Below, piece by piece: positions 12,720 through 54,689 of a DNA stretch of 64,000 bases. The position numbers were made by a program, and so were the translations under genes. The notes beneath the pieces were generated by a model that was not told where the DNA came from, made no database searches, and saw only the letters and a program-made list of their open reading frames with translations. Location: positions 5,086,001 through 5,150,000 of the forward strand of contig CM119371.1 of assembly GCA_051294905.1 (NCBI GenBank). The letters run 5' to 3'. The DNA comes from Botryllus schlosseri. Taxonomy: Eukaryota. Position 1 is the stretch's first letter; every line of letters begins with the position of its first letter.

Positions 12720-13060
12720 GTTTGGTGCCAGCATGTATATCCATATGACTCTTGAGATGACACATCGGAATGAATGCGTTCCCAATATCCCACATACTTC
12801 ACATAGATGTTTTTTGATTCAAGTATTCATAGACATATGAAGCTGGAGGCTACCTTTCTGAATGAATGCTTTCCCACGTACATGATTTCTAATTCCAACA
12901 TGCGTATCCATATGAAGCTTGAGGCTAGCCTTCTCAGTAAATAGGCACACATTCCCGCCAACATCACATTTATGATTTTTGATTCCAGCATGCATATCCA
13001 TGTGACGTTTGAGGACGTTCTTCAGCAAAAATGCTTTCCCGCATATACCACATTCATGAT
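12720..13060 (-). pseudogene. Degenerate out-of-frame zinc-finger tail of ZF gene 1
   Basis: Remnant fingers such as LKRHMDMHAGIKNHKCDV..FTEKASLKLHMDTH..GKAFIQKGSLQLHM, with indels and lost Cys residues. Confidence 0.75.
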
Positions 13061-14074
13061 TTTGATTTGAGCATGCGTGTCCATATGATGCTTGAGCCTA
13101 CCTTTATGATTGAATGCTTTCCCACATATATCACATTCATGATTTTTGATTCCAGCATGCATAGCCATATGATGCCTGAGGCTAGCTTTCTGAATGAATG
13201 TTTTCCCACATATCTCACATTCATGATTTTTTATTCCAGCATGCATATCCATATGACTCTTGAGGGTACCCTTCTCGGTGAATGCTTCACCACAGACATC
13301 ACATTCGTGACTTTTGATGCCAGCATGCTTATCCATATGAAGTTTGAGGGTACCCTTCTGAGTGAATGCTTTACCACATATAGCACAACAATGTCTGATT
13401 CCAGCATGCATTTTCAAATGCCGCTTGAGGTTACTCTTTATGATGAATGCCTTCCCACATACACCACAGTCATGATTTCTGATTCCGGCATGTATATCCA
13501 TATGACACTTGAGGGTACCCTTTTCAGTGTATGCTTTACCACATATAGCACAACAATATTTGATTCCAGCATGCATATCCATATGACGCTTGAGGTTACC
13601 TTTGTGAGTGAACGCTTTACCACATATAGCACAACAGTGTCTGATTCCTGCATGCATTTCCAAATGTCGCTTGAAATTACTCTTTATGATGAATGCCTTC
13701 CCACATACACCACAGTCATGATTTCTGATTCCAGCATGTATATCCATATGACACTTGAGGGTGCCCTTCTCACTGAATGCTTTACCACATATAGCACATG
13801 TATGATTTTTGATTCCAGCATGCTTATCCATATGACGCTTGAGGGTAACATTCCCAGTGTTTGCTTTACCACATATAGCACATGTATGATTCTTGATTCC
13901 AGCATGCTGATTCATATGAAGCTTTAGGGTACCCTTCTGAGTGAATTCTTTATCACATATAGCACAACAATGTTTGACTCCAGCGTGCATAGCCATATGA
14001 CGCTTCAGGACACCCTTTCTGCTGAATGCTTTCCCACATACATCACAGTCATGACTTTCAATTCCAGCATGCAT
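13022..14074 (-). CDS. Tandem C2H2 zinc-finger ORF 1 (12 fingers); 5' end abuts an L2 insertion and the 3' end is frameshifted, so possibly a pseudogene
   Basis: 350-aa ORF of repeated CxxC-x12-HxxxH units with AGIKNH-type linkers. The frame is lost near 13060 (one base missing in an A-run) although finger sequence continues. Confidence 0.9.
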   Translation of the reverse strand: MHAGIESHDCDVCGKAFSRKGVLKRHMAMHAGVKHCCAICDKEFTQKGTLKLHMNQHAGIKNHTCAICGKANTGNVTLKRHMDKHAGIKNHTCAICGKAFSEKGTLKCHMDIHAGIRNHDCGVCGKAFIIKSNFKRHLEMHAGIRHCCAICGKAFTHKGNLKRHMDMHAGIKYCCAICGKAYTEKGTLKCHMDIHAGIRNHDCGVCGKAFIIKSNLKRHLKMHAGIRHCCAICGKAFTQKGTLKLHMDKHAGIKSHECDVCGEAFTEKGTLKSHMDMHAGIKNHECEICGKTFIQKASLRHHMAMHAGIKNHECDICGKAFNHKGRLKHHMDTHAQIKIMNVVYAGKHFC

Positions 14075-14485
14075 AATAATTTATAGAGCACCGAATATAA
14101 AAATATATAATACTACACTAGAGCGCTGTACATAAAAGGCAATACAATATAAAAGTAAACGATATGTATAAAAGACGGAGTGCATAATTGTAGGGCGGAA
14201 TGAACACTACTTTAGTTCGAACGCTGGTGTGAATAAATCGGTCTTGATTCTGCATTTGAAAACATACAGTGAGTCACATGTAGTCTGATAGAAAATGGAA
14301 GATTGTTCCACAGAATGGCGGCCAAGTAAGTAAAGGTTCTCTCGCCGCATGTCGATGTTCTGACTCTTGGAACCGACAAGAGTTTTTGCGACTGAGAACG
14401 TGGCGTTCGTCCGGGATTATAGATCGTCACTAGCTCACGAAGATACGCTTGAGCACTATCCTTCATGCATTTGAAGACGTACAGA
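14075..14485 (-). mobile_element. L2-type LINE 3' remnant
   Basis: Translation AQAYLRELVTIYNPGRTPRSQSQKLLSVPRVRTSTCGERTFTYLAAILWNNLP matches the typical L2 ORF2 C-terminus. The 3' UTR ends ..GCTCTATAAATTATTAT directly at the ZF1 ORF start. Confidence 0.8.
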
Positions 14486-17836: not shown

Positions 17837-18995
17837 ATGTTGGACTTCCAACGCCATATTGATATGCAAGCGGGCATGAAAAATCACAACTGTGATATAT
17901 GTGGGAAAGTATTTACCAGGAAGGGTAGCATCAACCTTCATATTATGCGTATCCATGCTGGCGTTAAAAATTATAACTGTGATGTATGTGGGAAAGCATT
18001 TACACTGAAGGGAGACCTGATGCGTCATATGAAGATCCATGCTGGCGTCAAAAATCATAACTGCGATGTATGTGGGAAAGCATTTATTCAGCAGGGCAAT
18101 CTCATGCGTCATATGCATATTCATGCTGGCGTTAAGAATCATTTCTGTGATGCATGTGGAAAAGCATTTACACTGAAGGGAGACCTCAAACTTCATATGG
18201 ATATCCATGCTGGCGTTAAAAATCATATATGCGATGTATGTGGAAAAGCATTTGCTAGGAAGACAGATCTCATGCTTCATTTGGAGATCCATGCTGGCGT
18301 CAAAAATCACGACTGTGATGTATGTGGGAAAGCATTTACTAGGAAGCAAGACCTCATGCGTCATGTAGATATACATGCTAGCGTTAAAAGTCATTTATGT
18401 GATGTATGTGGGATTGCATTTACACAGAAGGGTAGCCTCAAGCTTCATATGGATATCCATGCTGGCGTCAAAAATCATAACTGCCATGTATGTGGGAAAG
18501 CATTTACTAGGAAGAGAGACCTCGTGCGTCATGTAGATATCCATGCTGGCGTTAAGAATCATTTCTGTGATATATGTGGGATAGCATTTACACAGAAGGA
18601 TAGCCTTAAGCTTCATATGGATATCCATGCTGGCTTCAAAAATCATACCTGCGATGTATGTGGGAAAGCATTTACTAGGAAGAGAGATCTCATGCGTCAT
18701 GTAGATATACATGCTGGCGTTAAGAATAATTTCTGTGATGTATGTGGGAAAGCATTTACTCGGAAGAGTAACCTCAAGCGACATATGTATGCATGCTGGC
18801 ATCAAAAATCATAAATGTGAAGTATGTGGGAAGGCGTTTACTGAGAAGGGATACCTCATGTGTCATATGGATATAAATGCTGGCATCAAACAGCATCGAT
18901 GCGACATCTGTAGGAAATCATATACTCAAAAATGCAACTTCAAGCGTCATATTTATATGCATCCAGACGTCAAAACTGATATTTGTGGGAAATAA
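17837..18995 (+). CDS. Tandem C2H2 zinc-finger ORF 2 (10 complete fingers, an 11th frameshifted near 18790, then 2-3 degenerate fingers)
   Basis: ORF 17837-18814 of CDVCGKAF..HMDIHAGVKNH repeats. The fingers continue in another frame (18711-18995: HAGIKNHKCEVCGKAFTEKG..CDICRKSYTQKCNFKRH). Confidence 0.9.
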
Positions 18996-32693: not shown

Positions 32694-34235
32694 TATCGTG
32701 AAATCAAATACAAATCAATCTGCAAAACAAAATATTTTCATTGACAGACGGACTGACAAAAATAACTTATTTTGTCAAATTTCACTGGCCAGTTGATAAA
32801 ATGCTAGGATTTTTACAAAATATTTGTAACAACCTTAATAACTTGCAGTTGGTAGCCAAGAAGACGGGAAATAGAACTAATGACACAACAAACTAACTAG
32901 ATTGAATTACGAAGCAGCTCGTAAATTTGTATATTATCAGAATCAGATCGATTTTCCACAAGAACATCGGTACAAGTTTGAAATGGGAGAATATTTGTCC
33001 CCAAAACCCACCTATTGGCTACACCACTGTTCGTAGTGATGACTCTAGGCTAGCAATGGCTGCAACTGCAAGAACATCACACAACAGAACATCGTAATCA
33101 CGATTCACACCAAACGACGACACGCCTTTTCTAGTGGTTCGGCAACTAAGTATAACTAATCCCTTCACTAAATCTTCAACTAGAACTAGAACTAGTCACA
33201 AAACCATCCATTATAGTTGATTGTCAACTAACTAATTGATAGTTTGCATAAGTCTACATAGAAGTGATAGAACCTCTACGTCCTCTAGTAAAACAAACAG
33301 ACAAAAATAGAATAGCATACCAGATATTTAGCAATGAAGAAACCGTGATTTATAAGTACTGTACCAATACCAAAGACATCAACGATAATGCAACAAAGAA
33401 TGCAAAACTAACCTGTATAAGTTCCTGAACTGCCCTTGAACAAACGAGCAAAGAACGACGTATGATTCTGATATCCCGTTGTGTAGTCCAGCTCCAGAGA
33501 TATAATTTGATATTCCACAACTTGCTAATCACACGGCGTGTGCGAGAATGGTCACCATTCTACGACACCCTTAATATGTGTTATCCAAACAGAAGCACAG
33601 CACTGACATATTACTTTTTTTTACCAATAAAAAATCTAATCAGAGAGGGGGAGTCCCCGATCAACATTGTCGCCGAAGTCAACGAACTGTGAACGTATAG
33701 AGTAGAATGATATTTTATTTATTTTGTCGATCAAGCAACACAGAATGTGTTGTTAACAAGCTTCTATGATGTCGAATAAGATTTTTTTCCAATTACTAAA
33801 CTAGCATTATATCAGCAGTTAGTAACCTTTACTGACATGGCGACCGATTAACGCAAATCTCCAAGCCTTCTGCGGCCCATAATATTCCTCCAAAAATATG
33901 GTAGGGTTACCATACGTCCTCTTTATTGACTTTATTTCAAAGTGTCCTCGAAGGACGTCCAAATGTCCTCTTTTTTTGAGAAATTGTCCTCTGTTTTGAA
34001 AATTCTGGCTAAAAATAGGTTTAAATTCAACTGAAATATAGCAAATTAGTGCCCAAGAAACGTTCCGGGTGTTGTTTTGTGAATTGAGCGGGAAAGTTGA
34101 CCTCTTCTTCATTTTTTTTAGTCAACCAACGGAGAATACGACAAAAGGAGTCGGGTCGGAAAAATGACTTTTTTAGCGCAGAGCGAATGTTTGTAGTTGT
34201 ATAATTGTATATCTGACTCCAAGATGTATTCTTGA

Positions 34236-37200
34236 TGTGCAACTTTGCATTTATTCATAGGTTAAATACCGTAATAAATGATCAAACTGAAATACAAAAG
34301 AACAGTTGCATCGACTAGCCTAATCCCTATTGCTCCAACAACTCACAAGACGTGGGTGCTAATACATACATGCACGCACGTCGCACAATCACAACAACAA
34401 GACTAGATCGCTCATGCGTTTAGGGAAACTACTAGAGAGAGATTGTAGTAAGAGATAATCACACATCCCCCCCAACTCCTAACGAAATCAACGAGCATTG
34501 AGTGAGGAGTTTAAAATACAGCGTGTAGAGAACGTCCAACCAAATACTCTAATGGCGATTGAAGCGGGAATCAACATAAACTTTGTGCCCCAATAACGTA
34601 GTCCTTGTGCCATACTGGCGGGGTAACATTTCTGCCTGAGCGCTGGCGTCTATCGTCAGACGGTGCGGGTACACTAGTGTCGTCGATCGGTACTTCAACT
34701 GGTAGATGATCTTCTGCACTCGATTCGGTGGATCTCAGCAAGCCAGGGTCTACCTCATTCGACTGTCCACTTAGAGCGGGTGGCGAAACGACTAGAGGTG
34801 ACGTAGCTGTGCCGGGAGACGAGACCGTTGGCTGAAAATATGTGTGCTTTTGGTTCGGAAAGTACGGCTCAATCTTGCGTAGAAATTTCCTGTTACGTAG
34901 CGTCAATCTGGCGGAACCGTCCACTTTCACGAGGTACTGGTCATGGTCTCGGCACTGAACCACAGTGCCGGTTCTGTCCCAGCGAAGGGGATAACGACCG
35001 TTTTGGTTTTGAATGCGACAGACATCACCTTCAAGAAGTGGTGATAATGGCTTAGTGTTCAACGACAGAGATTCCAGCTGCTTCGCAAATCTGGTACGTA
35101 ACGTGTGCTCGCGACTCTGCCAGAGGTTCCTCCATAATGGCCTGATGTTGCGCTGGGTGAAAACTGGGACCCATGCTTTGATCGGCAACGCATCTTTCAA
35201 AGTCCTGCCAAATACTATTTCTGCAGGGGAGAGTCCATTCGCGGGGTCGGGGCAATTGCGAAACTGTAGCAATGCCCGAGTAATTGCATCGGTCCGGATG
35301 CTGCCATCCTGCGAAATGTTGCCGAGAAGGAGTCGTTTCATCGATTTCACCGCAGCCTCCGCGCGACCATTTGACCTGGAGTGGTAGGCTGACGACAGCC
35401 TGTGGCGCACCCCCCATTTTCGAAAAAATTCCCGAGTGCTGTGCGCAGCAAATTCGGGTCCCCCGTCACTGCTAAGTTCTTCGGCCACACCAAACGTGCC
35501 GAAGTAACTTCGTAATGCATCTTGGAGTCCGAGGGCTCCAGACGTTTGGCCACCGTGCTTCACATGGAATATCTCTGGCCAGTTGCTGAAGCGGTCAACG
35601 ACGACTAAATAGTGGTGGCCTGCGGCGGTGCAATAATCAGCGGCAACAGCTTGGAAAGGGTAGGTCGGTATGAATGGCTCGGCCGGAGGCATGTATGCTT
35701 GACTCGGTGCCATTTTACTGCAGTTGTCACAACGTGCTCGTGTACGTGCTATACACTCAGTCATCCCAGGCCAAAATACTGTGGCCTGCGCCCTCTGTGA
35801 CATGGCAGCAGTCCCTTGGTGTGCCGAGTGTAAGATTTCACAGATAACCCCTCGCAGCGGCGGGGGAACGACAATCCGGTCATTATACATGACAACATCG
35901 TCTACGATCGAAAGGTCGTCGCGGTACCGCCAATATGATTGTAGTTGAAAAGGCAGTTTGTCCGATTTGTCTGGGAATCCTGATATGATGTGATTTTTTA
36001 ACTCACTGAGAATAGGATCGTATGCAGTACTGCGCTTTACATCGTCCCAGGAGACAACTTCAATGGCATTCAATGATGCTCGGGAGGCAGCCACGATGCT
36101 GATTTCAATCAGATTGGTGTCCTCATGAGAAGCCACGATACTGTCGCAGTGATCCAACGGCATGTCATCCACTGGAGTCGAGGAAGCAGGGTGCCTGGAG
36201 AACGCATCAGATGCAGGAATGAGTTTGCCAGGAACATGGACGACACGGAAGCGCCATGACAATGTGCGCTGCTTCAGGCGAAAAATCCTTGTGTTAGTAA
36301 TTTCATCAAGGGAGCGGTCCCCAAAGATTTTTACCAAAGGTTTGTGGTCAGTGCAGATGATAAGATCGTCACATCCGAGGGTGAAGAACTTCGTATCTTC
36401 TAATGCCCATGCGATTCCAAGCGCCTCGCCCTCTATAGAACAATATCGTTGTTCGGCGGATCGGAGGAACCTTGAGCCAGCGAGAGTGATTTTCCACCCA
36501 TGGACGCAACAGTCAGGGGTCAAGGAAACGCATTTGCAGTACTTCTGTCGCAGCCAGTAGCCAATGCCGGACCTTGACCAGTCCGGGGTCAGGCACGTTC
36601 TTCTAGTGGGGTCAAAGATACGTACTCCATCTTTGATTGCGTTGATGAGCTCGAGCTTGGAGTTCGCGAATGCATCATCAAGTTCGGAAGTCCAGCAAAA
36701 TGGAGTTTTCACGCTTAGTAACGGTTTGAATGGTGCCATAATGGTAGAAAGCCGGCCATAATGAGAAACCTGGTTGACCAGCCCAAACCATGCACGTATA
36801 TCTGCTATTTTTGTTGGCCGTGGGAAGCACTGTATTGCTTCCAAGTATTTGGGCAGAGGGCGAACATTCTCGGCAGTAATTTCGAAGCCGGCGAACTCGA
36901 TATGTCTGCGGCAGAACTGGAACTTGGAGGCGTTTAGGATGATACCTTCACGGCCCATTAATTCTAGATAGTCAATCATCCTCCACCAGTGCGTGGCAAG
37001 ATCATCGTCCCAGAGGACCGTGTCGTCCACGCACTTCGTTTTGCGTGGTGTGTCGGCAATGATGCTGTCGTAGCGGTAAGCGTACCCGTCGCCACTGGCC
37101 AGGTATCCCTGCGGGGCCACTCTATACCGATATCTCCCGAACTCAGTGATGAATGTCAGAAGGTGTCTATCCTCTTCACGCACGGGCACGGAATGGTAGC

Positions 37201-39436
37201 CATTCCAGGCATCTGTGACAGACCTGTAAGTGTTTGGAGGTATCGAGCGTGCTTGTTTGAAAGGAGGCACAACATGGTGTGTTTCTCGAGAGCAAAAGCG
37301 GTTCAGCGATTGGAAGTCAACAACTCTCCTCGGGCTGCCATCTGCCTTGCGCACCCATATGGCCCTATGACACCAGGTCGTTGGCGTGTTCGGCTCCACT
37401 TTTTCAATCACCCCCAATTTTACGTCCGCCTCCAACTGCTTCTCGATTTCCTCTTTCCAATGAAGTGGAATGGGAGCCGGTGTGTGGACTGCAGTCGGTG
37501 TCGCCGACGGATCGATATGAATGGAAATAGGCGGCCCAGTCATGGTTGGTAGTGGGCTGTGTTTGCACTTGTTGAATGTGGATGATGCATACCTCTCAAG
37601 TAACCACTGCTTCATTTTATCCACATTCTCCGCACAAGGCTGGAATGGCAGCTGCTGGGGTCGTGAAGGAGGCGTGGACCTCCGTGGGCAGCTACATGTT
37701 TGATGTGGGTTACCCTCAAGGGTTGACTCTCGTGTCGCGTGGAGTGCTGCTGCCCCAATCTGAGGAAAATCGGGCCCAATGATGCCCAACTTCTGCATGG
37801 CATCTCGGCTAAGGTAGAAGAGTTTCGTAGAATCCGTAATGTATACCATCTCAGCGGTTTCTATGACATCGCCAGAAACTGCTGCACCCGAAAGTCGCAG
37901 AAACACAGCGCCCAGGATGTGGATACACTCATCATTAGCTGCAACCAAGCGTTTCTTTACCGGGATGAGATGCTGGTCCTTGAAGCCGCATGCTCGAAAC
38001 AGTTTCAATCCCATCAAGGATGATTGTGCACCAGTGTCTGATATCGCCTTTACCTTCTTGGGCGATATTTTGGGACGCTGGATATTGAACTGGGCATAAT
38101 CGGCTTGCCGGGTGGAGACCAAAAGATCAATGGTCGGTTGTGCCTTGCAGTCTTTCAGCAACCATCCGTATGTGCCATCAAATATGTGATGGTCTAATAT
38201 GACTTCCGAAGCATGAGATTCTACAGTGTTTTTGGTACGGTTTGATACTGAAGCGATATTGATACTAGAAGCGGTGCCAGTACTAGGTGTCTCCGATTGG
38301 TTGCTTTGTCTCCAGCAGGCTAGACATTGTTTAAACTCGCGCAACCTCGGCTTACCAAACTTCCCATGCAAGAATTTATACTTCTTCATGACACTGCCAC
38401 ATTTGCCACATTTGATGACTTGAGAGAGATCGGGCAACGGCTTGCCAGTAGAAGTGCTGGCCGCAACGCTAGATTCATGCTGATTTCTCAATGTGGGGGA
38501 GGTGGCACGTAGAGCTAATTCCTTGTTTTCAATAATCTGGACAGTTTCGTCTAGCGATTTTGCATCGAGATTTGCAACACTAAGGACTTGCCGCTGAACC
38601 TCATCATCAGCCAGGCCGGCGATGACAATATGCTTAACAATTCTATCAGAAAAGTCATTGACTTGGGTGCAGCCAGGCTTCGTGCAATTCATTTGAAATG
38701 AGCAAATTCTTGCAGACGCTTTCACCTCGGCTAGAAATGCACTGAAGGACTGTCCTTGATCCTGCTGGGCCGAAAATAGAGCAACGGTGCGCATGCTTGT
38801 GGCGATTTTGACAACTGCTAGAGATTCAATAGCTTTCAGCATATCACCTTCACTGACCTGATTGAAGTCACAGACTTGTTTGAAGAGGTCGTTCGATAAA
38901 GTTATCTCGCAGCATTGCCAAAGGTGGCTCTTGATTAGCTTGTCGGGTATCTCGGTCCCTTTTTTAAAATCGTCCCATTTTCTGAGGAATATTTGCCATT
39001 CCTCGGCAGTGGAGCCACGCGAAATGACGGGTCGTTCCATGACAGGTGGTCTCGAACGCGAGACATGAGGACATGTTGTGTGGATTGTAGCATGGATATT
39101 GAGCTGTGTGACGGCGCCGGCCGTATCTTCGGATTCAGTCTCATAATTGCAGTCTTGGATTGGGCAAGAAAGCTTCGGCATGGTTAATCCGTATTAAGTT
39201 TGATCATGTGCAACTTTGCATTTATTCATAGGTTAAATACCGTAATAAATGATCAAACTGAAATACAAAAGAACAGTTGCATCGACTAGCCTAATCCCTA
39301 TTGCTCCAACAACTCACAAGACGTGGGTGCTAATACATACATGCACGCACGTCGCACAATCACAACAACAAGACTAGATCGCTCATGCGTTTAGGGAAAC
39401 TACTAGAGAGAGATTGTAGTAAGAGATAATCACACA
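34236..39436 (-). mobile_element. Intact Ty3/Gypsy LTR retrotransposon (Mag-like features), very recent insertion
   Basis: Identical 230-bp TG...CA LTRs at 34236-34465 and 39207-39436; 5-bp TSD CTTGA (34231-34235, 39437-39441); PPT GGAGTTGGGGGGGA next to the 3' LTR; a single uninterrupted gag-pol ORF. Confidence 0.97.
34571..39181 (-). CDS. Gag-Pol polyprotein (Gag, protease, RT, RNase H, integrase), 1536 aa
   Basis: Protease DTGAQSS; RT motifs VDFQSLN, TDAWNGYH, APQGY, CVDD; RNase H PDWSRSGIG, IEGEAL, TDHKPL; integrase LHSAHQG..CDNC, ADY, SDGGPEF, SNGRAE. Domain order PR-RT-RH-IN is the Gypsy order. Confidence 0.97.
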   Translation of the reverse strand: MPKLSCPIQDCNYETESEDTAGAVTQLNIHATIHTTCPHVSRSRPPVMERPVISRGSTAEEWQIFLRKWDDFKKGTEIPDKLIKSHLWQCCEITLSNDLFKQVCDFNQVSEGDMLKAIESLAVVKIATSMRTVALFSAQQDQGQSFSAFLAEVKASARICSFQMNCTKPGCTQVNDFSDRIVKHIVIAGLADDEVQRQVLSVANLDAKSLDETVQIIENKELALRATSPTLRNQHESSVAASTSTGKPLPDLSQVIKCGKCGSVMKKYKFLHGKFGKPRLREFKQCLACWRQSNQSETPSTGTASSINIASVSNRTKNTVESHASEVILDHHIFDGTYGWLLKDCKAQPTIDLLVSTRQADYAQFNIQRPKISPKKVKAISDTGAQSSLMGLKLFRACGFKDQHLIPVKKRLVAANDECIHILGAVFLRLSGAAVSGDVIETAEMVYITDSTKLFYLSRDAMQKLGIIGPDFPQIGAAALHATRESTLEGNPHQTCSCPRRSTPPSRPQQLPFQPCAENVDKMKQWLLERYASSTFNKCKHSPLPTMTGPPISIHIDPSATPTAVHTPAPIPLHWKEEIEKQLEADVKLGVIEKVEPNTPTTWCHRAIWVRKADGSPRRVVDFQSLNRFCSRETHHVVPPFKQARSIPPNTYRSVTDAWNGYHSVPVREEDRHLLTFITEFGRYRYRVAPQGYLASGDGYAYRYDSIIADTPRKTKCVDDTVLWDDDLATHWWRMIDYLELMGREGIILNASKFQFCRRHIEFAGFEITAENVRPLPKYLEAIQCFPRPTKIADIRAWFGLVNQVSHYGRLSTIMAPFKPLLSVKTPFCWTSELDDAFANSKLELINAIKDGVRIFDPTRRTCLTPDWSRSGIGYWLRQKYCKCVSLTPDCCVHGWKITLAGSRFLRSAEQRYCSIEGEALGIAWALEDTKFFTLGCDDLIICTDHKPLVKIFGDRSLDEITNTRIFRLKQRTLSWRFRVVHVPGKLIPASDAFSRHPASSTPVDDMPLDHCDSIVASHEDTNLIEISIVAASRASLNAIEVVSWDDVKRSTAYDPILSELKNHIISGFPDKSDKLPFQLQSYWRYRDDLSIVDDVVMYNDRIVVPPPLRGVICEILHSAHQGTAAMSQRAQATVFWPGMTECIARTRARCDNCSKMAPSQAYMPPAEPFIPTYPFQAVAADYCTAAGHHYLVVVDRFSNWPEIFHVKHGGQTSGALGLQDALRSYFGTFGVAEELSSDGGPEFAAHSTREFFRKWGVRHRLSSAYHSRSNGRAEAAVKSMKRLLLGNISQDGSIRTDAITRALLQFRNCPDPANGLSPAEIVFGRTLKDALPIKAWVPVFTQRNIRPLWRNLWQSREHTLRTRFAKQLESLSLNTKPLSPLLEGDVCRIQNQNGRYPLRWDRTGTVVQCRDHDQYLVKVDGSARLTLRNRKFLRKIEPYFPNQKHTYFQPTVSSPGTATSPLVVSPPALSGQSNEVDPGLLRSTESSAEDHLPVEVPIDDTSVPAPSDDRRQRSGRNVTPPVWHKDYVIGAQSLC

Positions 39437-41473
39437 CTTGACTCCAAGAAGGTTGCGTTTACAATTCGCTGCGTGTTTCTTCTTTCGTTCGACGAACCGG
39501 CGTAACCGCGCCGTACGGCCTTGTTGGCTGACGTACCACGAAGCCTGTCTATTGGACACGTATTCGATGGATCACACTGACGAATATATTTGTTTCCGTC
39601 TCCACGACTTGTAACTTTATTGAATCACGTACGACAAAGTAACGGACTTCCGAATCAGCGAAATATCATGAATTGAATGACCGTCTCTCATAGCCACGAG
39701 AGAGTACATATGCACACATTGTTATCTACGTTCACACGACAAAATATACGACTCACAAAAGTCTTATCAGGTTTCAGTTCAGGGAATTACGTAAGGTCTA
39801 CCAACTCCTTATCGACTAATATTTAAATGGCGTTATACCAATATACTCCGTTAAAAGTTCCCCCTTCCCACCAAAATAACTTGGTGTAAAAAAAACGAGT
39901 ATATTGGTCAAAATCTCAAACCTAGGGTCATACAACATATGGACTGGGGCTAATCATAGGGACTGGAGACAGGAAACGATTTTATATGCAGGGGCAAAAG
40001 TAAACTAAAGAAACGAAATACCATACAAGCGTGGCAGCGTGGCAAGCGTGTCAAGCGTGGCAAGCGGAAACCCTATTTTACATAACCATCTCGGAACGAC
40101 TCGCAATATCATCGTTCCGTCCTACTGGCAACTGAAACTCAGATCAACAATAGTTAGCGCTCAAACAAAACAAAGAAATAAAATACATAATTAAACCAGC
40201 ACAAAAGCGTTACAACCGTGACATTACAGATCACTTCGCATGCACTAACAACAAATTAATGAAAATGTATAATAAAGAGCAACAAAAACTAGAAAATGCA
40301 ATGCAATTCACAGACGTAACCAGTCTAAACCAGTCTATATGCACTGACGAATACCATCTACGTGTATGCAAGGTCAACACCATAATTCATCCAGCAATCA
40401 TGCTTCAAAACCCACAGAACATGCCATTCACCGTCATCAATCACTTCTTCTACTTTCTCATTATTACTGTCAACCCGTCCAGCGGGCGCAGCAATCATTC
40501 CTACCAAATCCGTGTTGTCTGTACACAACAACAGAGGGCTTATAACAATCCAACAACCATTCTACAATCTGCAGTGACCATCTCAAACATGACGCAAGCG
40601 ACTACAAACGGGCCTACACGAGACTAACATATATTACTACAACGCATACTTCAGCAACGAGCTTCGGTGATCCCACGTTACATTCTACGACGGGGAGTCA
40701 CAACATGATGCAGCAATCCTGCATTTACATAATATATCAATGCGCAAATCACGCTTTTCACTACGCATATCTTTACTTTACGCGATTCAACAATCGATGA
40801 AGCAGCAATCCTGCATTTAAGCAACATATTAATGCACAAGGCATTTCTCATCACGCATATCTTTATTCTACGCGATTTAATGCAACACGTAATCATTCAA
40901 ATGTCTTGGTCTAACAATTCGTCTCCCTCTGGACGTATATCTTGGACTTGACTCGGTGATATTTCTGCAATCACGAGATATCACGTCGGGGTCACCATTT
41001 AACGCAGAGCGAATGTTTGTAGTTGTATAATTGTATATCTGACTCCAAGATGTATTCTTGACTCCAAGAAGGTTGCGTTTACAATTCGCTGCGTGTTTCT
41101 TCTTTCGTTCGACGAACCGGCGTAACCGCGCCGTACGGCCTTGTTGGCTGACGTACCACGAAGCCTGTCTATTGGACACGTATTCGATGGATCACACTGA
41201 CGAATATATTTGTTTCCGTCTCCACGACTTGTAACTTTATTGAATCACGTACGACAAAGTAACGGACTTCCGAATCAGCGAAATATCATGAATTGAATGA
41301 CCGTCTCTCATAGCCACGAGAGAGTACATGCACACATTGTTATCTACGTTCACACGACAAAATATACGACTCACAAAAGTCTTATCAGGTTTCAGTTCAG
41401 GGAATTACGTAAGGTCTACCAACTCCTTATCGACTAATATTTAAATGGCGTTATACCAATATACTCCGTTAAA

Positions 41474-44130
41474 TCAACCATCCACAAAGGCAACGCATAC
41501 TCCAACGCCGTCAAATCCGCCGGTCTCTACCAAATGATCACCGAGCCTACACGCATAACCGAAAAGTCAAGGACTTTGATCGACCACATATATACCAACT
41601 CGCGCGACATGGAAATCATTCCATTTGTCATTTCGGCAAAAATCAGTGACCACAACCATATTGGTTTTCTATCACAAGAACAACAAAGGACACCCCCCGA
41701 AACATATCACCTCTGCAGACGACGAGAGATAGTGGACGAAGAAGCGATCGATGATGCCGCATTCAATCAATTTAAAACATCAGCCATCCCCCACATCTCG
41801 GTAAACAACTTTGACGAAAAATTTGTTGAGTTTATGTCTGCTATCAAATCACTGCTGGAACAATTTGCACCTCTACAGCGCCTTTCGAGAAGTCAAAGAA
41901 AATTGAAGCGAAATCCGTGGATGACCACAAAGCTGATTCAACTTATCCGTAAAAGTAACCGGTGGCATAACCGAATAGACACCAAGAACTGCCCAGAACA
42001 TGAACGAGAAAGATTTCGACGTTTCAGGAATCGCACCGTGCATCTTATTTCCAAGGCAAAAGCAAAGTACAATGAGAGATTTTTCAACAGACACATAAAG
42101 GACACTCGAAAAACATGGTCAGGACTTAACTCTCTCCTACATCGAAAAAAAGGCCATAAATCTGTTTCGGAAATTGTGAATTCGGACACCGGAAACAAAC
42201 TTTCAGACCCGGCGGCCATCGCGAATCACTTCAATGAATATTTTTGTAACGTAGGCCCAAATATTGCTTCTTCTATTACAAAACCTGTGTCGGCCAGGTC
42301 AGAGGTGAGATCGATATCCCAGTCAATTGTGCTTGAACCTATACGACCAAATACGAAGTAGAAGTAGCCATCCACAAACTGAAATCGCACAAGGCCGACG
42401 GCTATGACCAAATCCCATCATGGTTTTTAAAAATGATAAGCCTGCATATCGCTCAATATATGGCCCATTTTTTCAACTTCATGATAGCAAATGGAGTCTA
42501 CCCAAGCTATTTAAAAAAAGCCAGAGTAGTCCCTGTACACAAAGCTGGGGATAGAACTAATGTCACCGACTACCGTCCGATATCCGTTCTCCCATGCATC
42601 GGGATTGTATTCGAAAAGTTGCTCCTCTCCCGCCTGTCCTCATTCCTCGCCAAAATGTCTGTCATTTCCCCTCAACAATTTGGCTTCCGAAACAAACACC
42701 AAACCGCTCATGCCCTCCTAACAGTGGCCGAACAGTACTATGATATCTCAGAGAAGCGAAATGTGGGATGTAGCATTTTTCTCGACCTAAAAAAAGCGTT
42801 TGACTGCGTAGATCATAAAATTCTCATCTCGAAATTGGCGCGTTACGGACTTCGGGGCCCACAACTTGAGCTCATGAAAAGTTACCTCACTGGACGCCAA
42901 CAAATGGTTGCGATCTCAGACACCTTGTCCTCTCCTCACCCGGTGACCTGTGGTGTGCCCCAGGGCTCAGTACTTGGACCGGTCCTTTTCACCTTATATG
43001 TCAACGACATTTTTGAAACCTCCTCATTGAACACCACACTGTTCGCTGATGATACTCACCTCCTCTCTTCCGCATCTTCGACGGCAGAGCTGGATGCCCT
43101 GACTGGTGACCAAATGCCCAAAGTCCATGAGTGGACGGCCCAGAACAACCTTTGCATAAACGCCTCGAAATCGCAATTGCTGACAGTAAATTCAAAAAAT
43201 AACCTAACCGTTAATATCGCTGGTCAGCCCGTTTCCAACACAGATAATGCCAAATATCTCGGAGTTTTACTGGACTCGAACATGTCCTGGAAGAGTCATA
43301 TTCAGTCCCTAGAAACTAAATTATCACCGAAGTGCGGCCTGTTCTACAGCCTTAAGCGCTTCATGCCAGCATGGGTTCTTCTGATACTCTTTACATCCTT
43401 AATCCAATCGAAGTTACATTATGGCATCCTCTGTTGGGGGGGCTGCCAGTAAAACTGCACTCAAGCCACTGCAGAAACTACAGCATAAAGTACTCCGAAT
43501 CATAGCTAGGGCCCCAAAGGGGCCTGGCTGCCCATCCAATAAGTCGCTGCTGAAGAGATTCGGCGTCCTAAACATAGAAGATATGCGGAAACTAGAAATC
43601 GCCAAGTTTATGTATCAGTTTCACTGCGGTCGTTGCCCCGAATATTTCAATGACTTCTTTACCTCTGAATCAAAAGCGCACAAGTACAACACACGCGCGT
43701 CCACGTCGTCCAAATATCATATGATCGACCGAAAAGATCATCGCTCCATCAAATATGCCGGACCTGATGTGTGGAACAGTATCCCGCCGGCCATCCGACA
43801 GTCGACGAGCATGTCCACATTCAAGTCGAAATACAAGCAATTACTACTAAATAAATACAGTCCATCCTCAAGATTACCGGACCACGACTGACCTATCGAT
43901 CTCGCTTCCCATGACATGCCGCCCTATTTCTTGTCGCATTCTTTTTCTATATCTTCTTTACTTTCATTCAGTGTGCATGCCTCCTCTTTACATCGCCTAG
44001 GCCAAGGTGGGTGTCAGATTCCATAGACTACTCCTTGTCGCTTCGACATCTTCCTGTCTTTTCATTGTATCGCATTTTTGTGGTGTATTGAACTGATAAA
44101 ATTGCTAATAAACCAATGATGATGATGATG
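41474..44130 (+). mobile_element. 5'-truncated CR1-group (CR1/L2/Crack-like) LINE; ORF2 broken by two frameshifts
   Basis: ORF pieces 41534-42361 (EN end: ITEPTR..LIDHIY..SDH, NPWMT), 42433-43452 (RT: YRPISVLP, QFGFR, DLKKAFD, GVPQGSVLGP, LFADD, KYLG) and 43421-43891 (C-terminus ..GPDVWNSIP). 3' UTR ends in AATAAA and a (GAT)n tail near 44130. Confidence 0.92.
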
Positions 44131-50929: not shown

Positions 50930-53381
50930 CACTGGGGTAATCGGTAAAATAGTAGTTATATATGTTATTGGCATTGGCTTGTGCAGTGCCGATGTAATTT
51001 AAGCCATACATCACACAGATTACCAAAGTAAATTCCTATCCAGACAAGGCAGTGCAGTCCCCACAAAATCACCCACAAAGATTAAAACCGAAGTTGTTCC
51101 TAATACTTGCAATACTGTGTATACTTGGTCAACTAGGTTAATCTAGTTGTCTAATCAGAGTAAAAAGCAAATGCAGGAAATCTAAATATAATTTAATTTG
51201 TGAAAAGTTTCTCTGTTTTATTTTATTTTCAATCTCATTTCTGCTTTTCCTAAAAATGCTATAAGACTACTGTACAGTACGATACGCGCCATACTCGTGC
51301 TTAGAAGAATTAACTCCGATTTGATATGAACTGAACTTGATTCAATTTCTTAGTTTTCAATATTTCTAATTCTAATCTAATTCAGGAAAAGCTGTATAGC
51401 TATAATATTATTTCTAATCCAATATGAAAACACTGGTACTGTGAAACAGAGACATTGACATTTAAGAATTTAAAACAGGGATGCTGGACTCTTTTTCAGA
51501 GTAAATACCATTTCATTGTAATTTCGAAGCCAACACACTATTGGGATATCGTTTGTTGGTACTGGTGCTTGAAAATGCGACCAGGAACTGCTAAAAGTGA
51601 GGAAAATTGATATATTATAAATGCGAACCATTCCATATCACCAAACAAAGTTAAAAAGTGGGCTTAGGAAGACTTTAACAGGAAGCTGAGCAGTCAACAC
51701 AATGACTTGGACTCGGATTCGAGTCATAATACCATGACTCGGACTCGATCCTCTGTTCGCTGACTTGGACTCGAACTTGACTCAGTGGGAATTGAAAATG
51801 ACTCGAGTTGAAAATATAAAAATGAGATTGACTTGTGACTCGGAGCCTTGTGACTTGGTTACAACCCTTGTAGATACTACTCAATGCTTGTACGTTGTTC
51901 ATTCTTAGTTATAAGTCCTCAACGTACTTGTTCTTTTTCGCACGTTGATTGTGAGTGTCTGTAACTCAACTGTTATGTGTTTCATATATTCGTTGTTATT
52001 GCTGCTATTGCTTTTTGTAAGATACATTCCGTATTAGCTTACCCTGGTTCGGTATTATGTTATGTGGTTATCTAATTTAAATAACCATTTACCCTGGTTC
52101 TGGCTGACACGAAGATCGTCATGATCATATCGTCGGCACCAGTCAATACCGATAAACCACTCTCTCTCTCTCTGACACCGAGTGTTCACTGTTTTATAGT
52201 AATGCACCTGGACAAAGTTTAGTAGTAGCCTTTCAGGATTCTGTAATTTCAATTCTATTACATGCCTGTCTCATATCATTTTTCACACAATCAGATTTAC
52301 CGGTAGAGCTGAGTGAGGCGTCTTGGAAACTGTAGGGCCCCATTGGTATGACTCCGTAACATGATGTTATTTCATGAACTCCTTGTCTGCTATATCAAAA
52401 AATATAGAATCGCCCAAACGCAGGCTACTAAGATAAAAGACACACATGATTTCAAATTGGAGATTCTTCAGATTGCCAAGACAGAAACATTCGGCGCCAG
52501 ACATTTAGGCGCCTATGGACAATTAAACCTATATGTATTTTGTAAGTTTTCGGTCAGAATAAGGGCAGCCCTTTTCGGTCAAGGTTTTCGTGCTACCGAT
52601 CGTTCTGGCACACTTCTTGGAGTCACATGTAAAATGGCTTAAAACTGTATGTGTCTTTGTGCATCGTGGCGCGGTAATGGCCAAAATATATGCCCATTTC
52701 TATAAATCTTGCATATTTTAACTTGGGGGAAGAATACCCTAAAATCAAGATATTTGGCTTTTTTTTTAAATCGCGTAAATTTACAAAAAATACTTTATAA
52801 TTTAGGCTAATTCTGGAAATAATTTTGGGCCCCCTTCGAGCTCGCCCCCCCCCCCAATTGGGGGGTTTGGGGTGCGGCAGTTAAGGTCCTGCGCGCACTA
52901 TATTCGGAAAATTACAGTACTTTTCAAAACTTGTACCTAGGATTAAATTTTCAACTGTCAACCTTCATAAATTGTCAATTAACTAACTTACATCGAAATA
53001 GATTCAGTTCCGAAACAACACACCAATTTTTATTATATCGGAATCGAAATGTCTTTCGAAAGAATTGTAGTGGGAGGAGTGTTGACCCCTGAAACCAACC
53101 CCTGGATACGCTTACCTAGCAATGGCTGTGAAAACATCGTACACCAGAACACCAGTCTCATGATCACTCCATATGACTACAGTGTTTTCATAGTTTTTAT
53201 GCAACCTATTTTTTCTTAAACTGACGACTCAAATCCGATATACCAGTATTGCAAATATGCTGTTTACATATTAATGATGCAATTTGTGTAGATTTATTCA
53301 ACACTATAACTATAATACATAGCAGGTGGTGTAATAAATAAAATCATTTTGTCAACTTCTGATGAGTACTTTCACAATAAG

Positions 53382-54689
53382 ATGAAAGATTGTCCGTGCG
53401 ATATGGCCAAGAATCCGTTTTCTCAAAAAGTTAACCGCAAGCTTCACACTTATGCGCATGCTGGCATCAAAAATCATAGATGTGCTACATGTGGGAAAGC
53501 ATTCTTTCGAAAGGGTGATCTCAAATGTGATATATGTGGGAAGGCATTCACTCAGAACGGTCACTTCAAGCAACATATGGATATTCATGCTGGCGTCAAA
53601 ACTCATAACTGTGGTATATGTGGGAAAGCATTCTCTCATAAGGTAAACTTCAAGCGTCATATGGATAAACATGCTGGTAACAAAGATCATAAATGTGATA
53701 TATGTGGGAAAGCATTCACTCAGAAAAGTTACCTCAAGAAGCATACGGCATGGCATGTCGGTGACAAAAATCATAAATGTGATATTTGTGGGAACACATT
53801 TACATGCAAGGGTGGCCTCAAGAAACATAGGGATATCCATGCTGGCATAAAAAATCATAAATGTGATACATGTGGGAAAGCATTGTCACGAAAGAGTGAT
53901 CTCAAGCAACATATGGATATGCACGCCGGTAAGAAAGATCATGAATGTGATATATGTGGAAAGGCATTCAGTCAGAGTGGTCACCTCAAGCAGCATATGG
54001 ATATTCATGCTGGCGTCAAAAATTATAAATGTGATATATGTGGAAAAGCATTCACTCAGAAGGGTTACCTCAAGAAGCATACGGCACGGCATGCCGGTGA
54101 CAAAAATCATAAATGTGATATTTGTGGGAGCACATTTACATGCAAGGGTGGCCTCAAGAAACATATGGATATTCATGCTGGCGTCAAAAATCATATATGT
54201 GATATATGTGGGAAAGCATTCTTTCATAAGGTAACCCTCAAGCTTCATATGAATACACATGCAGGTATCAAAGATTATAAATGTGATATATGTGGGAAAT
54301 CATTCAGTCAGAAGGTTCACCTCAAGTACCATATGGATGCCCATGCTGGCGTCAAAAACGAGAAATGTGATATATGTGGGAAAGCATTCATTCAGAAGGT
54401 TTACCTCGAGCATCATATGGACATGCATGCCGGTAACAAATATCATAAATGTGATATATGTGGGAATACATTTATGTGGAAGGTTAGCCTGAAACAACAT
54501 ATTAATATCCATGCTGGTGTTAAAAATCATGAATGTGATGTATGTGGGAAAGTATTCACTCATAGGAGTAACCTTAAGTGTCATATGGATATACATGTTG
54601 GTGGCAAAGATCATAAATGTGATATATGTGGGAAAGCATTCACTCGTAAGGATAAGCTCAAGACTCACATTAATAGCCATACTGGATGA
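53382..54689 (+). CDS. Tandem C2H2 zinc-finger ORF 3 (14 complete fingers plus one truncated in frame), apparently intact
   Basis: Open frame 53349-54689 with first in-frame ATG at 53382. Regular 28-aa CDICGKAF..H-x3-H-AG[VI]KNH repeats ending HTG*. No KRAB, ZAD or BTB domain recognisable; upstream exons are possible. Confidence 0.92.
   Translation: MKDCPCDMAKNPFSQKVNRKLHTYAHAGIKNHRCATCGKAFFRKGDLKCDICGKAFTQNGHFKQHMDIHAGVKTHNCGICGKAFSHKVNFKRHMDKHAGNKDHKCDICGKAFTQKSYLKKHTAWHVGDKNHKCDICGNTFTCKGGLKKHRDIHAGIKNHKCDTCGKALSRKSDLKQHMDMHAGKKDHECDICGKAFSQSGHLKQHMDIHAGVKNYKCDICGKAFTQKGYLKKHTARHAGDKNHKCDICGSTFTCKGGLKKHMDIHAGVKNHICDICGKAFFHKVTLKLHMNTHAGIKDYKCDICGKSFSQKVHLKYHMDAHAGVKNEKCDICGKAFIQKVYLEHHMDMHAGNKYHKCDICGNTFMWKVSLKQHINIHAGVKNHECDVCGKVFTHRSNLKCHMDIHVGGKDHKCDICGKAFTRKDKLKTHINSHTG

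Follow-up and report, generated by a model that had tools for sequence, protein, structure and literature searches.

A stretch of 64,000 nucleotides (nt) from Botryllus schlosseri (NCBI GenBank assembly GCA_051294905.1, contig CM119371.1, positions 5,086,001 to 5,150,000 of the forward strand; hereafter the window, whose numbering is used throughout) carries on its minus strand an intact, recently inserted Ty3/gypsy retrotransposon that offers no binding site to the CCA end of a tRNA. At the position where such a primer-binding site (PBS) is expected, the element pairs with a tract inside its own long terminal repeat (LTR). We consider self-priming by the element's own RNA, without a tRNA and in the manner of Tf1, to be the best explanation of this arrangement, with a probability of roughly 0.8. 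The first-pass annotation, made from the sequence of the window, had drawn this inference from the one element. It is now supported by pairing in 33 of 39 families of relatives, by the fact that each family pairs with a sequence of its own, and by compensatory changes between close relatives.

In the element, TGATCAAACTTAATAC rather than TGG comes after the terminal CA of the 5′ LTR, and the gag start codon (ATG, 39181) lies 25 nt beyond. The PBS TGATCAAACT (39197–39206, minus strand) is located directly 3′ of the 5′ LTR and is an exact complement of LTR sequence, with the pairing taking in the last LTR base, 39207. Its partner, the self-primer tract AGTTTGATCAT (39249–39259, minus strand), is the exact complement of 39207–39197, so that positions 39259–39249 form a perfect duplex of 11 base pairs (bp) with the last LTR base and the 10 nt after it, across a loop of 41 nt. 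Within the window, this 11-mer has exact matches only in the two LTRs and, on the other strand, at the PBS. When the 300 nt upstream of gag were shuffled by mononucleotide, a stem of at least 11 bp in the same geometry arose in 0.15% of the shuffles. The hairpin folds with a free energy of −15.0 kcal/mol (z −3.8), and its loop contains an AATAAA poly(A) signal (39221–39226, minus strand) between primer tract and PBS, 14 nt before the LTR end. At a depth above 100 RNA reads, no variant of at least 10% was listed within 39249–39259; positions 39244, 39267 and 39271 vary. Re-examination of the window thus returned the element, LTRs, tract and PBS with the coordinates and sequences that the first-pass annotation had given, together with the missing TGG, the distance to gag and the 11 perfect pairs.

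That annotation had also extended the duplex by AATAC. The 5 additional base pairs (AATAC/GTATT) are present in the window element, across a 1×2 internal loop, and to this extent the claim stands. As a part of the functional duplex, however, the extension was rejected because it is not conserved: relatives are paired at stem positions 16–18 in only 8–9 of 31 cases. It probably lies upstream of the transcript start.

Relatives were collected by a profile scan of metagenome contigs with the element protein, which yielded 80 loci of 36–59% protein identity. A recognisable gag start was present in 53 loci, the window element included, and at least 130 nt of upstream sequence in 48 of these, which were grouped by similarity of the upstream 300 nt into 39 families. 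The canonical geometry consists of an LTR tract ending in ..AT and a partner 20–130 nt downstream that starts at the last LTR base (A) and continues with T, usually TG. Of the 39 families, 33 have a perfect stem of this kind with at least 9 bp, and in 30 its length reaches at least 11 bp; the corresponding values for mononucleotide shuffles in the same geometry are 1.6% and 0.15%. Stem length in the canonical families ranges from 9 to 17 bp. Some loci retain both LTRs, in which case the LTR end marks the PBS independently; they show the same arrangement with unrelated sequences (L012, L015, L052, L056, L062/L065, L069/L074). Two other loci were rejected as two-LTR references, L001 because its repeat is internal and L022 because it is degenerate, with a mutated tract. 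Among 18 loci outside the main count, the canonical stem was found in six (L016, L033, L036, L061, L068 and L076).

The pairing is specific to each family. The 33 canonical families possess 33 distinct PBS 10-mers, 30 of them starting with TG and three with TC; none starts with TGG, and between-family identity at PBS positions 3–12 averages 3.1 of 10. Anchored at the junction, a tract pairs with the PBS of its own family over 12.3 bp on average (range 8–17, n = 32) and with the PBSs of other families over 3.4 bp (maximum 9, n = 992). Covariation between PBS and LTR tract, a check proposed with the original annotation, is therefore clear; none of these 33 families keeps a TGG site, and the great majority of the 39 retain the pairing.

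We counted base pairs over the 33 hairpins from the junction, because a MAFFT alignment had misaligned the termini and was set aside. All four Watson-Crick pair types occur at stem positions 6–11, four at position 5 and three at position 4. Position 10 is paired in 30 of 33 families, with one further G-U pair, and position 11 in all 33; for these positions, for those beyond them and for the inner boundary, pairing does not follow from the way the stems were found. Positions 12–15 are paired in 17–20 of 31 cases, and positions 16–18 in 8–9 of 31, which is the background level. The inner boundary of the duplex is sharp and coincides with the last LTR base: one position further inward, no pair is formed in any of the 33 families, and in 30 of them the two bases are a pyrimidine-pyrimidine mismatch. 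Compensatory double changes separate close relatives (L011 from L013/L049, and L056 from L054/L055), and the terminal stem lies within the minimum-free-energy fold in 30 of the 33 families.

Several further features of the relatives were recorded. Their protein names are generic ('K02A2.6-like', 'Ty3-I Gag-Pol') and their taxa sparse; some of the metagenome contigs are marine by name, and a scan of IMG/VR returned no relative. LTR ends are often of the form TAGA...TTTA. Many families (e.g. L011, L014, L017, L024, L029, L071) have a pyrimidine-rich LTR end, ..TTCTTCA or ..TTATTTA, frequently preceded by GAGGAG or GAAGAG, which makes a small hairpin just before the PBS possible. This end, absent from the window element, may serve as an integrase site or as a counterpart of the U5-IR stem. 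The PBS is damaged in two members of one family, L053 (deletion) and L060 (mismatch), in a way that resembles decay after insertion, and the sister copies L054–L056 keep 15 perfect pairs. On the metagenome contig L059 (1–9859), 4,497 nt are repeated at a spacing of 5,362 nt with 99.98% identity, which would be either a tandem or a circularly assembled copy of a related element.

We mapped RNA reads from runs of the same species label, among them X21, X22 and X23 (the last being bulk RNA). Read cover of the LTR is strongly sense-biased (up to 421 versus 7 in X21) and has the depth profile of 3′-tag libraries. Reads with loose ends at 39436 stem from 3′ LTRs, since they run on into the polypurine tract. 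The loose ends before 39207 include poly-T (26 reads in X22 and 29 in X21). Polyadenylation thus appears to fall on the CA that ends the LTR (39207–39208, minus strand), 14 nt after AATAAA (39226–39221). With the poly(A) site there, the repeat (R) region would span the hairpin up to the LTR end, leaving a unique 5′ region (U5) of about 0 nt. The motif A[AT]TAAA lies within the loop in 15 of the 33 families.

For the start of the transcript, motif statistics point to an initiator-like TCAGTT (39256–39261, minus strand), whose A at 39259 is the first base of the primer tract. Across the 33 families, the A of a YAG trinucleotide falls exactly on the 5′ edge of the complement in 13 (0.87 expected) and within −2 to +4 of it in 25 (about 5.6 expected). 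The full TCAGT, which we take to resemble the animal initiator consensus, is found near this edge in nine families (0.44 expected), the window element among them. We infer that transcription starts at 39259, which narrows the earlier prediction of a start anywhere in 39259–39266. If this A is +1, the primer would consist, as in Tf1, of the 11 nt with which the RNA begins, and AATAC would then lie upstream of the transcript.

The reads contained further signals within the LTR. Three X23 reads show adapter read-through at exactly 39259, with fragments ending on the side of the unique 3′ (U3) region; this is the wrong direction for a sense start, and we gave these reads no weight. The RNA also shows common LTR variants, located in U3 and immediately upstream of the primer tract: 1 nt is deleted at 39267, GAG is inserted behind 39369 and AG behind 39404, and most reads have T>G at 39375. 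Several diverged copies of the element family must therefore be transcribed.

Taken as self-priming, these features would fit together as follows. Transcription would start at the A (39259) of the TCAGTT motif, and the first 10–11 nt of the RNA, AGUUUGAUCAU, would fold back over the 41-nt loop to pair with 39207–39197. The RNase H of the element would cut the RNA at the inner end of the duplex, near 39249/39250, freeing a 3′-OH, and the reverse transcriptase would extend this primer through 39207–39248 into a strong-stop DNA of about 42 nt. The strong-stop DNA would be transferred to the 3′-terminal R copy of the RNA, and plus-strand synthesis from the polypurine tract would later copy the RNA primer and so rewrite the PBS. 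Rewriting of the PBS from the RNA primer would keep tract and PBS complementary within each family and would by itself yield compensatory changes.

A number of observations weigh against self-priming or narrow what the counts can say. The stems were found by a best-complement search, so pairing at positions 1–9 is given by construction, and the shuffles preserved mononucleotide rather than dinucleotide composition. A canonical stem of 9 bp or more is missing from six of the 39 families: on inspection by eye, two of them (L003 and L057) look canonical apart from one mismatch, L038 has 8 bp, L039 is degenerate, L043 has a spurious gag start and L048 is unclassified. Outside the main count, 12 of the 18 loci have no canonical stem. 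In nine of these 12, the upstream sequence is shorter than 150 nt or the gag start unreliable; the other three, L020, L022 and L044, are stemless despite adequate upstream sequence and gag start, L022 being a degenerate copy. The poly-T loose ends at 39207 are mixed with other flanks (agreement 0.57–0.59). The RNA reads show no place where many molecules begin, and thus no mapped 5′ ends, with a low depth over the PBS and gag (about 1 in X23, about 6–14 in X22). Finally, the scans for tRNAs and small RNAs covered the window and, for tRNAs, 12 large loci.

The stem might alternatively serve as a structural RNA element and not as a primer, either as a hairpin specific to the 5′ end that hides the promoter-proximal poly(A) site or as a signal for packaging, dimerisation or translation, with priming achieved in some other way. 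The position of the stem gives this view some substance: 15 of 33 families have a poly(A) signal in the loop, polyadenylation falls on the last LTR base, itself paired in the stem, and since the PBS partner is confined to the RNA 5′ end, the stem could distinguish the 5′ R from its 3′ copy. In addition, the gag ATG lies only 11–56 nt past the stem in about half of the families. However, this explanation leaves the element with no other primer site, as nothing resembling TGG follows the LTR in any of the 33 families, and the loop lacks a canonical poly(A) signal in the remaining 18. The duplex is moreover anchored at the base that joins LTR and internal region, with 0 of 33 families pairing one position further in, which is a requirement of a primer and not needed by a hairpin. 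We therefore regard a purely structural role as unlikely; masking of the poly(A) site may well coexist with priming as an added function.

Priming at the PBS by a host RNA, whether by an internal fragment of a tRNA, the type used by copia or Ty5, or by another small RNA, would make the LTR complement incidental. Priming by half-tRNAs is described for Ty1/copia lineages (PMC6317226). The scans returned no tRNA in the window or the 12 large loci, and no Rfam family in the window. PBSs that are primed by the host are conserved between families, for example the 12-nt PBS of Steamer across the bivalve subfamilies described in PMC8905726, whereas here 33 families have 33 different PBSs, each matching its own LTR, and an incidental complement would not covary. 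This makes a host primer very improbable. As for a chance inverted repeat in an AT-rich LTR, stems of 8–11 bp do arise in shuffled 300-nt sequences if the geometry is left free (shuffle maxima 8–14), but with the geometry fixed at least 11 bp occur in 0.15% of shuffles against 30 of 39 families and the pairing is family-specific, so that chance is practically refuted and, judged from the sequences, is not the source of the pairing.

To our knowledge, self-priming has been proven experimentally for the fission-yeast element Tf1 only. There the RNA's first 11 bases base-pair to the PBS, and cleavage by RNase H falls between bases 11 and 12 (PMC7175516), and Tj1 of S. japonicus is described with the same layout (PMC4600332). 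Tf1, Tf2 (Schizosaccharomyces pombe) and Tj1 are self-primed Ty3/gypsy chromoviruses in which a tract of about 11 nt at the RNA 5′ end is complementary to the sequence after the 5′ LTR. The window element resembles them in lacking a tRNA PBS, and the minimum conserved duplex of its lineage is also 11 bp. It differs in having no chromodomain, an animal host and only a distant similarity to Ty3; its R region appears to reach the LTR end, leaving no U5, and its start and cleavage sites are predicted ones.

Self-priming has also been reported for the Tf1/sushi group, the Tcn1 clade and the copia lineage TAR (PMC6317226). The cases recognised by sequence carry the same signature, a PBS complementary to the element's own LTR; among those presented in PMC6934838 and PMC6317226, the Ty3/gypsy members are all chromoviruses of the Tf1/sushi/Tcn1 branch, and TAR belongs to Ty1/copia. 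The clade of the window element, by contrast, has no chromodomain, carries CVDD instead of YxDD and is known from an animal genome and from metagenome contigs. If the Tf1/sushi family is defined by the chromodomain, the element falls outside it, while the mechanism proposed for it is an already known one. Skipper, a chromovirus of Dictyostelium, likewise has no TGG PBS, but according to PMC5006619 it has no LTR tract complementary to its PBS position, and such a complement is the defining feature of the window lineage. Our searches of the open-access literature yielded no report in which self-priming is attributed to an animal Ty3/gypsy lineage without a chromodomain, and no match that links CVDD with a retrotransposon.

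The first-pass annotation had further called the element Mag-like, a label that we could not support. With the Mag/SURL/Steamer group it shares a size of about 5 kb, short LTRs (about 180–230 bp), a single gag-pol open reading frame (ORF) and a 5-bp duplication; Steamer-like elements are given as 4.7–5 kb with LTRs of 153–219 bp (PMC8905726; PMC11046912). Unlike the window element, however, Steamer, a Mag-group element, carries a PBS with TGG that fits tRNA-Leu, and its LTRs are bounded by TGTAACA...AAACA (PMC8905726), and MchSLE1 has a YxDD box and a PBS for tRNA-Asn (PMC11046912). By eye, the terminal motifs of Mag A and Mag C in Table 3 of PMC3601003 match neither the window LTR, TGTGTGAT...TTGCACA, nor its relatives.

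The element as a whole comprises 5,201 bp (34236–39436, minus strand). Its 3′ LTR (34236–34465) and 5′ LTR (39207–39436), both on the minus strand, are 230 bp long, of the form TG...CA and 100% identical to each other. The polypurine tract AGGAGTTGGGGGGGA (34466–34480, minus strand) is G-rich and adjoins the 3′ LTR, as the same tract does in relatives. A target-site duplication, CTTGA on the plus strand and TCAAG on the strand of the element, is located beside the 3′ LTR (34231–34235) and beside the 5′ LTR (39437–39441). A single ORF of 1,536 amino acids (34571–39181, minus strand) encodes gag, protease (PR), reverse transcriptase (RT), RNase H and integrase (IN). The identical LTRs, open frame and 5-bp duplication described earlier were all recovered.

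Pfam assigned the domains RVT_1, RT_RNaseH, RT_RNaseH_2, Integrase_H2C2 and rve to this ORF, and its best match in the PDB is Ty3 Gag-Pol (1e-41 over about 800 amino acids). The order PR-RT-RNase H-IN, the gypsy-type RT-RNase H, the H2C2 integrase, the LTRs, the polypurine tract and the short duplication are those of Ty3/gypsy elements (Metaviridae). The translation contains CVDD in the RT and DWS in the RNase H, both as annotated before. In agreement with the earlier description as non-chromodomain, no Pfam match to a chromodomain was obtained for the window protein at E ≤ 0.01, and none appears among the Pfam assignments of all 120 relatives listed. The families nearest to the element, represented by proteins P0001–P0004, are 68–92% identical to it. 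The first 35 residues of Gag (39077–39181, minus strand) show a conserved M-x(1-7)-C-x(2-6)-C-x-aromatic pattern followed by near-invariant H30 and H34, which is shared with relatives and forms a C2H2-like finger at the Gag start. The nucleocapsid region has CxxC...CxxC instead of a CCHC knuckle.

Both ends of the element were determined from an empty site, an uninterrupted paralogue of the insertion target at 40998–41473 with a single CTTGA (41057–41061). Its identity to the left flank is 98.4% over 64 nt and to the right flank 99.5% over 419 nt, and since the two matches overlap by this one CTTGA only, both ends are fixed to the base. In agreement with these ends, RNA reads derived from such paralogues run from one flank straight into the other, at 39438 and 39439, with the element absent. 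The target is a repeated unit (39437–39855, 40998–41473) that recurs about 1,620 bp away. It is transcribed in the same sense and has a poly(A) site at 39589, where poly-T loose ends comprise 44 reads in X21 and 26 in X22.

The sequence around the element is animal-like in content. Elsewhere in the window, two adjoining open frames on the plus strand (41438–43452), the second of which (42337–43452) encodes a reverse transcriptase (RVT_1, 1.3e-35), probably represent a non-LTR retrotransposon. Three ORFs with 9–10 C2H2 zinc fingers each (13022–14080, minus strand; 17837–18814 and 53316–54689, plus strand) look like a zinc-finger gene cluster, which would fit an animal host.

Beyond the single element, we tentatively propose, at a little under even odds, that a large and deeply diverged chromodomain-less Ty3/gypsy lineage, present in an animal genome and in metagenome contigs with at least 1,900 detectable proteins, gave up tRNA priming. 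Its RNA would form a hairpin from R sequence only, in which the first 11–17 nt pair across the poly(A) signal onto the PBS, so that one stem both primes and masks the promoter-proximal poly(A) site in an LTR without U5. Because the copy in the window is intact and transcribed, the start at 39259 and the strong-stop DNA of about 42 nt are directly testable. For comparison, a survey of animal errantiviruses reports a tRNA PBS in 1,151 of 1,512 (PMC13524379); annotation pipelines that require such a site will mis-score elements of the present kind. A signature that extends across the whole chromodomain-less clade with clear covariation would broaden the known range of tRNA-independent priming. 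The finding also bears on whether hairpin priming is of ancestral or convergent origin: if the lineage is not sister to Tf1/sushi, self-priming would either have arisen several times or be ancestral for LTR elements, as was speculated in PMC3601003.

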